A stretch of DNA of 64,000 nucleotides, taken from contig CM022670.1 of NCBI GenBank assembly GCA_012295275.1, positions 6,758,001 through 6,822,000 on the forward strand. Direction: 5' to 3'. Source of the stretch: Chrysomallon squamiferum. Lineage: Eukaryota; Animalia; Mollusca. The notes under the pieces are model-generated. The model did not search any database and was not told where the DNA came from. It saw only the letters and a program-made list of their open reading frames with translations. Both the position numbers and the translations under genes were made by a program. This document shows, in pieces, positions 9,801 through 14,449 of the stretch. Positions within the stretch are counted from its first letter, which is position 1; each line of letters opens with the position of its first letter.

Positions 9801-10541
9801 ATGACAACGTACAGCGGGATAGGGGTGATGTCGGGTACATCAGTGGATGGTCTGGATTTGTGTTATGTGGAGTTTACTGGAGACATCAGTTCCGACGTGT
9901 GGGGATACTGTATAAAGAAAGCTGTCACACTGCCGTACAGCAGTGACTGGATTTCCAAGCTGAAGAAGGCCCCGAGGCTTTCTGGGTTAGACTTGATCAA
10001 ACTGCATGTCGAATACGGCCACTTTGTCGGACAGTGCGTTAGTGAATTTATCGACAAAGAATTAATCAAAGTCGATTTCGTGGCGTCGCACGGTCACACA
10101 GTCTTCCACCAGCCTGACAAACGTTTCACGTTCCAACTGGGCTGCGGAGAAACGACGGTCACACATTTCAGTTGTCCGTTTGTCTGTGACTTCCGATCCA
10201 AGGACGTCGCTCTTGGAGGACAGGGGGCGCCACTCGTTCCTTCAGGAGAGAAATATTTGTTTCGCCAGACAGATATCTGTTTGAATCTTGGCGGTATCGC
10301 CAATATCGGTCTGAAAGGAGAGCGGGGATATGACATATGTGCCTGTAACATGGTTCTCAACTACCTCGCTAACAAGCTAGAGAACGGGTTGGGGTACGAC
10401 AAGGATGGACAGACAGCCAGACAGGGACAAATCTCCCAGGAGCTTCTCGACGATCTGGAAGCGTTGTCTTACTTCAAAGAACCACCGCCCAAGTCTCTAG
10501 GATACGAATGGATTTCACAGAATGTGTTTCCACTACTAGAT
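9801..10541 (+). CDS. anmK: Anhydro-N-acetylmuramic acid kinase, exon 1 (247 aa)
   Basis: Motifs GVMSGTSVDGLD, ASHGHTVFHQP, FTFQLG, DFRSKDVALGGQGAPLVP, LNLGGIANI, YDICACN, YDKDG..AR.G and PPKSLG.EW are AnmK family signatures. Phase-0 donor gat|gtaaga at 10542. Confidence 0.95.
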
Positions 10542-12130
10542 GTAAGATTTTTTACAATTTATTCTTCTGTCATTCTTTGTTAAATATTGTAATAGATAAG
10601 CTGATGATGACTTAGTTATATACTTTGTTTTACACATCACTTGATAAATCAAAACCGATATTTTTAATTCTTATCCAGTTTTATGATTTGCTGTATTCTA
10701 TAATACTTATAATCAACATTGCTTTTATTAGAGAAAATATTATTTGATATGTGTTACATATTTTCTCATTAGTTAAACCAAGAAAAACAAAACATCGATC
10801 AACAAAAGACTGTTGTCGATCTTTAGGGGAGATATTGTTTTGTCTTCTTCATCATCTTTTCTTTTTTCTTGTTTTTTCTTTTTTTTCACTTTCATACGCG
10901 ATATTCAGGTTTCATATTGTTAGATAAACAAGTTTGTGCACCCCTTGATCATTTTTATGTTCTGAATTTGAGTGAGTCAGAAAAAGATAATAAAAAAACA
11001 AAAACACTTGAAATATCTAACCCAATAAATATTTACATTAGATACATTTACCTAAAACACTTGTTCGGAAAGAAAATGCTAAGCAGTGATTTTTATATTT
11101 TTAGATCACTGCTGGTGTTCTGTAAACTGTATTATTCATTTTGTGACTGTCCGTCTGAGGTAAACGATGAGTTTAAAATTCAGCTGTGTCGAATGAATAC
11201 ATTTTAACAAAATCTCGACACATTTTAACAGTAATCTTTACTATATATCCAACACAGCTTGTATAAATTGTCTTACACAAGTAACTCAGAGCTGACCGGG
11301 GGTAGATATTTATATATAATTATGTATCTTACAACACATCTCAAAACAATCTTTATCAGGGCTTTTTTAATACAAGTCAAGGACGATCGTTTGAAATAGA
11401 CCAGTGCATGTAAGTCAGCTGGGACGTCATTGTGTGAATTAAATAAAATACATCAGTTTGTGTGTGGATCTACATCAACAGGTTCGTGTGTATGTGTGTG
11501 AAAGAATCAGTTAGAGAAACAGATCCACACAAACAGGCAGAGAGAGAGAGAGAGAGAGAGAGAGAGAGAGAGAGAGAGAGAGAGAGAGAGAGAGAGAGAG
11601 AGAGAGAGAGAGAGAGAGAGAGAGAGAGAGAGAGAGAGAGAGAGCGCTAAAACTGCACTATCAGTAAGTCATTATAAAAGAAAACACTGTCAGACTAATC
11701 TCTGTCGTTGTCCCTCATTTCTCTTCTGACCTCTTCAGATGTTGTCGTTTTCAGGTCTCTAGGCACTGCCTAACTTGGTATCGAGCTGGAATCCACCAAT
11801 AAAACTTGTTAAAACGAGAAATAAATAAAACGAAATAACTGAGAGCAGTATTATACTGACACAAACTAAGTTACACGAAACACTGCGAAAGAACGCAAAT
11901 GAAAGTAAACATACTAACTAAAAACATGATATTCAAAACAATTTTTCTCTGAGCTCTGTGCATTTCTAAACGAGTTTTATTTCAGTTATTGATCTCAGGA
12001 CGGGTTCTGTATATTTGATATTGGTAAAACTCGTACTGTAACTGGTATGCTAGATGAATCTCCATTATAATACTTTCTCTTCCAGCTGTCCCCTGCGCCT
12101 GATGTAGCAAGGACGGTAGTGTATACTTTA

Positions 12131-12875
12131 CTCAGAAAAATGAATTTAAAAACCTTACTATTAATTTAGCCCTCAAGATGGTGAGTGGTCATAAACACTT
12201 GTTGTTTTTTTTTTCTTGTCAGCATAGGTTGAAAAAGAAATAAAATAAAACATTTCGGCGCAGTTAAATTACAATAATTTATCATATGTTGCAGAAACCT
12301 CTCTCACTGTAAACAGCTAAAGACCTTCAAGTTTAGCACAGATATTACGCAACTGTAACGTTTATACACTAACTGTAACAGTGATGTTATTTTTAGATTG
12401 TAACACGATCCACTGTAATATACTACAAACAGTATCTCGCACTTCAACAAAGGTCTCAGAAAAATGAATTTAAAACCTTACTATTAAAAAGATGGTGGTG
12501 GTATTTTTGCTTGTCAGCATAGGTTGAAAAAGAATTAAAATAAAACATTTGACAGTTAAAACAATAATTTATATTTGCAGAAACCTCTCACTGTAAACAT
12601 GTACGTCATTTAACAGATACAACTGTAACGTTTTACACAACTGTAATGGTGGTTAATTTTACACTAACACGTTCTGTTAAAACAAAAGTTTGATATACAA
12701 AGACAGACAGACAAACAAATGTTACATAATTAAACTGTTAAAACGTGATTAATTTAACTACATGTACGTCACATAACAGATACAGTTACAATTACATGGC
12801 GGCTAATTTCACACTACTCACGTTCTGTCAAAACAAATTTGATATACAGACAGACAGACAAACAAATGTAACTGT
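12131..12875. repeat. Degenerate nested tandem duplications in the anmK intron
   Basis: ctcagaaaaatgaattt...gcagaaacctctc occurs at about 12131 and 12455. catgtacgtca...gacagacagacaaacaaatg occurs at about 12598 and 12761. Confidence 0.8.
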
Positions 12876-14014
12876 TTAAGGAGTTATTCTTTCATATTGT
12901 TTGTGTAATGATGGTGATCGTGAGAATAAACACACTGTCAACACTTTGAATATTTTCATATCGACTATAAATAAGCAAGTCTTTTGTATACCACGACGTT
13001 TGATAAACCTGTCGTGGACGACACTGGGGTCGAACCTTAACCACCAACTCTTTACGGCATTTCAAATTAAATCAACCTATAAATATTTTTAAATTGATTT
13101 TCATTTGTTTGATTCTGTATTAACTTGTCAACCAAAGCTTTGACATAAATTAGGACATTGCTTTATCTTATTGCGTGACACCAATAAAGACATGTATAAA
13201 CAAAACACACACACATCATATTTTATCTGGAAAGTGTACATAAGGTGAACGAACATCGGTCAGCAAATGGTTGTGTAAATTTACTACGTAGATCAGTTCG
13301 TCTGTTTCCCGGATTGACCTTCGAGGTCGCGATAAGACCGAGGCCATTGACCTGATCACGTGAATATCCCGATATAAGGTTTCCGACACTTTGTCTGTCA
13401 TACTATAATTACATACACCTTGTTCTGTCGATAATTAATTAATCTGTTGTCAGCCATATTTCTCATTTTTCAGGTGAACTAGGGGCTGATCTAGGGGAAG
13501 AATTTATGTGAGTGTGTGCGCGCGCGCGCGCGCGTGTGTGTTTCTGAACGATTCCTGCAGATTAAAAGTTGATTACAGTTTTGTTATTTCTTAAAAACGA
13601 CTGTACTGTTCTTTACATTCTCGGATGTTCATTATATTGAATATATTAAGAATATATTTAATACAGACATTTTTCTTTTAATTTTTTCATATTTAACTTT
13701 ATACCATATATATATTTTCATACTAATAAATTACCTCATCCATAATCCGCAGTCAAAATTAAGCAACAACATCTAACTGGTACTGGACCCGAACCCCTTT
13801 TTCTGTACACAAAAACGCAAAATTTTAAAACAACAGTTAAACCAACAGTCTGATGTCCTTGCAGAAATATGACTATTTATTTATTTAAAAAAAAAAAATA
13901 ATAATAATAATAATAATAATAATAATAATAATAATAATAATAATTATTAAATAAATAAATAAATAATAATTTTATTTTTCTGTCTTAATGCTGGTTATTA
14001 CATTTATCTTCCAG

Positions 14015-14449
14015 GACAAGAAATATTCCGTTCCAGACATGCTCCATACATTCGTAGAACACGTGACTCGCAGAATTACGTGCGCTTGCGCCGAGAGCAA
14101 GAACGTGACGCCAGGGGTGGAGCCGCCTTCCATTCTTATCACCGGCGGCGGCGCTTTCAACACGTTCCTCATGAACAAGCTGGACAAGAAGCTGAGAGAG
14201 GCTGGTTTCAAGACCGAGGAGACTGACGAGGACACGATTAACTTCAAGGAGGCTCTCGTGTTCGCTTTTCTCGGCTTGCGGTGTCTTCTCGGCATCGACA
14301 ACATAGTTTCCGCCACGACCGGGAGTCGTTTGGACAGCGTATCCGGGAGCATACACCGACCAGTGGTACAGGTCGTATCCTCGCCGTCAATTCAGGGCCA
14401 GTTCAACTTCCTCATGAAAAGACAGTCTCTTCGCAACGTCCCCTTTTAA
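14015..14449 (+). CDS. anmK: Anhydro-N-acetylmuramic acid kinase, exon 2 (144 aa plus stop)
   Basis: Acceptor tttatcttccag| in phase 0. Translates DKKYSVPDMLHTFVEH...ITGGGAFNTFL...FKEALVFAFLGLR...ATTGS...GSI, the C-terminal AnmK motifs (GGGxxN, EAxxFAxL, TG). Confidence 0.93.
   Translation, partial: DKKYSVPDMLHTFVEHVTRRITCACAESKNVTPGVEPPSILITGGGAFNTFLMNKLDKKLREAGFKTEETDEDTINFKEALVFAFLGLRCLLGIDNIVSATTGSRLDSVSGSIHRPVVQVVSSPSIQGQFNFLMKRQSLRNVPF

Follow-up and report, generated by a model that had tools for sequence, protein, structure and literature searches.

The stretch of DNA analysed here (the window) comprises 64,000 nucleotides of the genome of the snail Chrysomallon squamiferum (contig CM022670.1, positions 6,758,001 to 6,822,000) and carries one copy of anmK, the gene for anhydro-N-acetylmuramic acid kinase (AnmK). 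The gene lies on the + strand in two exons which, when joined, encode 391 amino acids (aa) followed by one terminal stop. Exon 1 (9801..10541) supplies 247 codons (residues 1-247, with D16, T100, R132, N168 and D178), and exon 2 (14015..14449) supplies 144 codons (residues 248-391, with a GGGA motif and E326) and the stop. They are separated by a phase-0 GT-AG intron of 3473 bp (10542..14014, +), with a GTAAGA donor and an acceptor formed by a pyrimidine tract and CAG. A preliminary description of this DNA had proposed such a split open reading frame (ORF) of 391 aa, with host-type microsatellites in the intron; the former was confirmed by exon translation, the splice sites and orthologue alignment, and the latter by the AG and AAT repeats that were found. 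In particular, exon 2 aligns without gaps to the protein of Gigantopelta starting from residue 248, directly after the 247 residues of exon 1, which confirms the exon junction. The GC content of the intron is 32%, versus 49% and 54% for the two exons, and an A occupies position -3 of the ATG. The first AATAAA after the stop (14867..14872, +) is a candidate polyadenylation signal, although it could be due to chance because the region is AT-rich. Additionally, the intron contains two overlapping tandem duplications (12131-12410 versus 12455-12674, and 12597-12725 versus 12760-12872; 73-77% identity with many small gaps), which stem either from a duplication long ago or from insufficient polishing of this part of the assembly.

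Both exons matched PF03702, the AnmK/levoglucosan kinase (LGK) family (158 and 42 bits, cut-off 24), and the best NCBIfam model for the orthologue P0005 was NF007144, at 408 bits versus 228 for the next model. An AlphaFold2 model of the Gigantopelta orthologue (83% and 73% identical to the window protein over exons 1 and 2, respectively) displays the two-lobed AnmK fold with a predicted local distance difference test score of 91, and a Foldseek search with this model returned AnmK structures as its top matches, with a template modelling (TM) score of about 0.8. The active site was assessed with a list of six residues and their roles taken from the available text of a preprint on tick AnmK (bioRxiv 10.64898/2026.03.13.711553). 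All six equivalents of the Pseudomonas aeruginosa enzyme are present in the window protein (D16=D14, T100=T97, R132=R129, N168=N168, D178=D182 and E326=E326), in line with the earlier statement that the AnmK motifs are intact. Across the 91 animal rows of the phylogeny presented below, the equivalents of D14, T97, R129, N168 and D182 are retained in 88, 75 (with Ser in a further 16), 86, 86 and 88 rows, respectively, and that of E326 in all 47 rows which reach that position, while the bacterial sister group retains all six residues in 41 of 41 rows. One divergent row of the animal clade, P0321, lacks several catalytic motifs. Furthermore, the window protein carries the GGQGAP motif of AnmK rather than the GRQGAP of LGK, and it is not closer to LGK (69-70 bits) than to AnmK (92-99 bits).

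The absence of a signal peptide, also noted previously, was upheld by inspection of the sequence, which lacks a hydrophobic leader, and by the orthologue model, in which the N-terminus enters the first beta-strand of the fold at once; the enzyme is likely to be cytosolic. At the opposite end, a tail of 30 aa (14357..14446, +), which appears as a low-confidence helix in the orthologue model, extends beyond the bacterial core and includes a KRQS motif resembling a basophilic kinase site (14417-14428). The tail is longer in the animal forms, and 24 of 45 animal rows contain a basic-basic-Ser/Thr motif in it, versus one of 36 sister rows.

The intron is not confined to C. squamiferum, as the match ends around profile column 250 for 44 of the 91 proteins of the animal clade, versus none of the 41 sister rows; these early-ending proteins would represent predictions from genomic DNA in which the reading continues into the intron. 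In all 25 early-ending proteins of the mollusc clade a Val, the residue expected from a GT donor, falls precisely on the exon junction of the window, and this common break point indicates that the intron is ancestral to gastropods and bivalves. In the other 19 such proteins the Val occurs 0-5 residues later (mostly 2-4), and the Ridgeia cluster contains short and full-length forms which diverge at the intron point. Judging from these positions, the annelid-side intron may either have shifted by about two codons or have been gained separately. Full-length orthologues from relatives are found on Logan contigs of 1.4-2.4 kb, which suggests that anmK mRNA is produced in these relatives.

Two similarity searches were performed, and the statements that follow refer to the matches listed (the best 120 in each). 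The closest named protein is that of the peltospirid gastropod Gigantopelta aegis, and the named orthologues derive from 31 species, which (Gigantopelta apart) we take to be distributed as 13 gastropods, 14 bivalves and four annelids (Owenia, Lamellibrachia, Capitella and Ridgeia). Many of these orthologues bear the NCBI label 'anhydro-N-acetylmuramic acid kinase-like', and orthologues reside on chromosome-scale records of 40-170 Mb. A tie to vent symbiosis was considered and rejected, as the gene is present in limpets, pond snails, land snails and oysters. No named eukaryote besides molluscs and annelids occurs among these matches, bacteria come directly after the animals in both lists, and the closest named bacteria are Bacteroidota or Verrucomicrobiota. 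About one quarter of the rows are named, at most about 8000 candidates were scored and true matches were lost (P0057 is absent from the second list though part of the query alignment); the absence of the gene from other phyla is therefore not established. A HMMER scan of 1.84 billion representatives, for which the best 150 of 10927 matches were listed, yielded seven matches inside the animal clade, and the 50% clusters involved can hide members from other phyla. A plasmid search retrieved distant AnmKs only (the best, on a Bacteroidota plasmid, at 42%), which were left out of the trees. A search for fused or longer animal AnmKs gave four matches among 7788 long candidates, none of which was named as animal, although this constitutes weak evidence; in P0465, P0466 and P0468, AnmK is fused to Mur-ligase domains, to a PF00933 glycoside hydrolase domain and to TPR repeats. 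Outside the present tree, a six-exon gene of Enchytraeus is annotated as anmK in Table S1 of PMC8460440, as far as the part of that source considered here goes.

In a FastTree phylogeny of 444 rows, the animal sequences form a clade of 91 rows (0.989) which includes a mollusc clade of 64 rows (1.0), and the next group to join the animals comprises 41 rows, the named members of which are metagenome-assembled genomes (MAGs) of Bacteroidota, Bacteroidia, Opitutia and Akkermansiaceae. This sister group is a small set of mostly uncultured Bacteroidota/Verrucomicrobiota AnmKs. Three of its four named loci sit among plainly bacterial genes (secA, dxs, class II aldolase), and neither murQ nor other wall-recycling families were detected among 16 ORFs scanned around the four loci. 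In two sister-group Bacteroidota loci a sodium:solute symporter gene is located just downstream of anmK (L002:1264-2850 and L015:4837-6420), and it is a candidate importer of the AnmK substrate. An IQ-TREE analysis under the C20 model with 64 rows recovered the animals at 100/99 and the animals plus sister group at 99/98, with the next two rows joining at 98/92; outgroup rows L085-L114 were gathered by searching the phylum to which G003 belongs and carry no taxonomic labels. Within the animals, support was obtained for molluscs (100/99), gastropods (99/96), Apogastropoda-type rows (99/94) and pteriomorph bivalves (96/92), and the annelid part is poorly resolved. The gastropod branching agrees with what we take to be the accepted species tree, and the gastropod, Apogastropoda-type and pteriomorph groupings are as expected of vertical descent.

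The animal gene thus belongs firmly to the Bacteroidota type, and both the subtype assigned in the preliminary description and the domesticated horizontal transfer proposed there are supported by the NF007144 match, by the closest named bacteria and by the trees. That the animal clade is nested among the Bacteroidota-type bacteria is favoured by the best tree but lacks statistical significance and is not proven. Rather than being a feature of the C. squamiferum lineage, the transfer is ancient and common to molluscs and annelids. A single ancient acquisition from a Bacteroidota-type bacterium before the mollusc/annelid split, followed by vertical inheritance, is very probable, and the transfer would have proceeded from bacterium to animal.

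With regard to function, lysozyme, amidase and hexosaminidase of the host could break down walls of eaten or resident bacteria, upon which AnmK would convert the freed anhMurNAc (1,6-anhydro-N-acetylmuramic acid) to MurNAc-6-phosphate (N-acetylmuramic acid 6-phosphate) in the cytosol. GKRP, acting as a MurQ-like etherase, may then cleave MurNAc-6-phosphate to N-acetylglucosamine 6-phosphate (GlcNAc-6-phosphate) and D-lactate, and the GlcNAc-6-phosphate would enter the hexosamine/chitin pool. The putative salvage pathway as a whole, from the upstream host enzymes (lysozymes, PGRP amidases and hexosaminidase) to the downstream hexosamine route, is the most inferential component of the interpretation. 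According to the available text of a preprint on GKRP (bioRxiv 10.64898/2026.05.08.723886), this protein derives from MurQ and is generally single-copy in metazoans, and the lancelet and Naegleria proteins cleave MurNAc-6-phosphate and are etherases; molluscs are unmentioned in that text. Tick AnmK and a Bacteroidota (Terrimonas) AnmK have been assayed as anhMurNAc kinases, as stated in the tick preprint (bioRxiv 10.64898/2026.03.13.711553). The substrate-and-salvage part of the interpretation is, on its own, reasonably probable. As for the interpretation in its entirety, namely an intact host gene of the AnmK family which stems from one ancient bacterial capture and encodes a predicted cytosolic anhMurNAc kinase that salvages wall sugar, we place it at slightly better than an even chance. 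A tentative and rather doubtful extension would have a complete animal wall-sugar pathway predate the mollusc/annelid split, with AnmK feeding an otherwise orphan GKRP substrate and with at least three independent captures of anmK (in the mollusc-annelid ancestor, in ticks and in rotifers).

A number of observations weigh against this interpretation. Regarding origin, most sister-group rows are without names and could include eukaryotes, and the bootstrap of the 64-row IQ-TREE analysis is unsettled (0.965); inclusion of the long row P0335, which falls beside the animals, in a C20 analysis of 65 rows gave an animal clade at 94/78. A tree that groups all 34 Bacteroidota-type bacterial rows in one clade, with the animals outside it, was not rejected in an approximately unbiased (AU) test (log-likelihood difference 10.0, p=0.199). 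Tick, rotifer, ciliate, Naegleria and fungal sequences were left out of all trees; thus, of the phylogeny outlined in the preliminary description, the part with bacterial AnmK and animal matches placed the animal clade beside Bacteroidota-type bacteria, and fungal LGK did not form part of it. Splicing and expression in C. squamiferum itself are presumed from the relatives, and the position of the annelid break about two codons downstream means that the intron is possibly not strictly homologous across the phyla. Regarding substrate, the NF007144 equivalog cut-off of 436 bits is reached neither by the orthologue P0005 (408) nor by the annelid P0162 (381), these models having been built for prokaryotes, and the Foldseek TM-score to LGK (0.80) is the same as to AnmK. 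LGK also has the equivalents of T97, R129 and D182, and the active-site set therefore does not fix the substrate. Tick AnmK is approximately 500-fold slower than the Escherichia coli enzyme according to the tick preprint, and the putative GKRP step is backed by data from outside the molluscs only.

It is conceivable, though unlikely, that a gene of the same ancient bacterial origin has changed its job, acting on another anhydro- or amino-sugar or mainly removing immune-active anhydro-muropeptide remnants under control of the tail. The slow tick enzyme, for which its authors suspect a change of substrate (bioRxiv 10.64898/2026.03.13.711553, available text), would fit such a change, as would the tail motif enriched in animals and the fact that the family already holds, in LGK, an enzyme with a different substrate. 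However, the tick-specific replacement of Asn by Cys is not common to the animals studied here, since 86 of 91 rows retain Asn and Cys was encountered at the N168 site in one match among 464 proteins (Babylonia isoform P0186), and the active-site set is the same as that of the bacterial sister group at all six sites.

Less probable still is an older eukaryotic or protostome gene that only molluscs and annelids, and perhaps ticks and rotifers, have retained while other lineages lost it, with no transfer at the base of the two phyla. This is compatible with the non-significant AU test, with anmK-like genes in ciliates, Naegleria, ticks, rotifers and fungi (LGK), and with the loss of matches in word-based searches and the phyla that 50% clusters may conceal. 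On the other hand, bacteria rather than other named eukaryotes follow the animals among the 120 + 120 matches listed, and distance to the window protein decreases from LGK to Pseudomonas AnmK to Bacteroidota AnmK. Moreover, the tick study examined 500 nr hits per gene, found rotifers and placed the ticks with Chitinophagaceae, its available text leaving molluscs and annelids unmentioned, and ciliate anmK is listed among genes from donors of the candidate phyla radiation type in the portion of PMC13198582 considered. Finally, Gigantopelta-like vent snails carry endosymbionts, but contamination, mis-assembly or recent transfer from the snail's own symbiont is in effect refuted by the canonical intron at a site common to molluscs, by the chromosome-scale records and the orthologues in limpets, pond snails and oysters, by a GC content at third codon positions (GC3) of 0.56 and 0.69 in the anmK exons, within the span of 0.38-0.82 seen over eight further stretches of exon sequence in the window, and by host genes on both sides.

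These flanking genes had been reported as PDE2 and a GABA-A-like receptor, and the assignment holds at family level. Upstream, a gene for a class I cyclic nucleotide phosphodiesterase has its 3' exons in 1..3027 (+), where PF00233 was matched by all five tested + strand segments in 1-2603 (one of them below the cut-off). Downstream, exons of a partly mapped Cys-loop ligand-gated ion channel gene occupy 30491..34968 (-), two of five tested - strand segments having matched Cys-loop channel families. Between the phosphodiesterase gene and anmK lies a CA-rich microsatellite of 1.1 kb (7715-8817), which accounts for long spurious ORFs at 7540-8914, while a minisatellite of 7.4 copies of a 20-bp unit (96% matches) is found downstream of anmK at 15495-15642. 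A single, apparently intronless ORF of 319 codons at 52788-53747 (+), with a GC3 of 0.82, gave a weak match to rhodopsin-family G protein-coupled receptors (28 bits, cut-off 30.5).

If the capture and salvage reading is correct, few captures of bacterial genes by molluscs and annelids would be as old and as widespread as this one, which would have been missed by standard screens that discount genes matching other animals (method in PMC8460440, as given in the part considered). It would also run counter to the claim made in 2026 that eukaryotes normally lack anmK and provide a substrate source for the etherase activity of invertebrate GKRP, and host salvage of peptidoglycan sugar would become testable in oysters, Lymnaea, Aplysia and Capitella. 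A search outside which most subscription journals fall found no literature that treats anmK as a host gene of molluscs or annelids. No host anmK was seen in the accessible portions of PMC7826175 or PMC8476170, including supplement searches, and the terms 'mollus', 'annelid' and 'lophotroch' have no occurrence in the available text of the tick preprint, the supplements of which could show mollusc sequences. The mollusc-annelid family has been auto-annotated in databases and has a precedent in the domesticated anmK of ticks and rotifers, and is itself apparently undescribed. Transfers have been proposed for spiralian g-type lysozymes (bioRxiv 10.1101/2024.10.03.616589), and PMC6006793 offers a precedent for an ancient transfer-versus-loss argument, both as judged from partial texts.

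Among known systems, the available text of the tick preprint (bioRxiv 10.64898/2026.03.13.711553) describes transfer of anmK to ticks and, independently, to rotifers, and states that eukaryotes normally lack the gene. Like tick IrAnmK and rotifer anmK, the snail gene is of Bacteroidota type, domesticated in an animal, vertically inherited and equipped with a gained intron and the key residues. The tick gene, however, is described there as having one coding exon, an intron in the 5' untranslated region, the Asn-to-Cys replacement, a Chitinophagaceae donor and a date of 150-300 million years ago, whereas the snail gene has an intron in its coding sequence, keeps Asn168, has a Bacteroidia/Opitutia/Akkermansiaceae MAG sister group and is common to two phyla; the mollusc-annelid capture was presumably separate from that of ticks. 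Bacterivorous protists, as far as the consulted parts of PMC13198582 (ciliate anmK and murQ) and PMC9928731 (Naegleria AnmK and GKRP) go, similarly combine AnmK with a MurQ-like enzyme, proposed to serve digestion of bacterial walls, but are single-celled hosts for which other donors are proposed. The fungal LGK (Lipomyces starkeyi, 4YH5) shares family, fold and eukaryotic host with the snail protein, yet it is the lowest-scoring solved relative (70 bits for exon 1), and its GRQGAP motif and insertions are absent from the snail protein. Bacterial AnmK (EC 2.7.1.170; P. aeruginosa 3QBW/8BRE; NF007144 subfamily) shares the fold, the six active-site equivalents and GGQGAP, while the snail protein differs in its intron, its 30-aa tail, Asn in place of D191, CACN in place of CGPGN, a score below the equivalog cut-off and a host that has no wall of its own.

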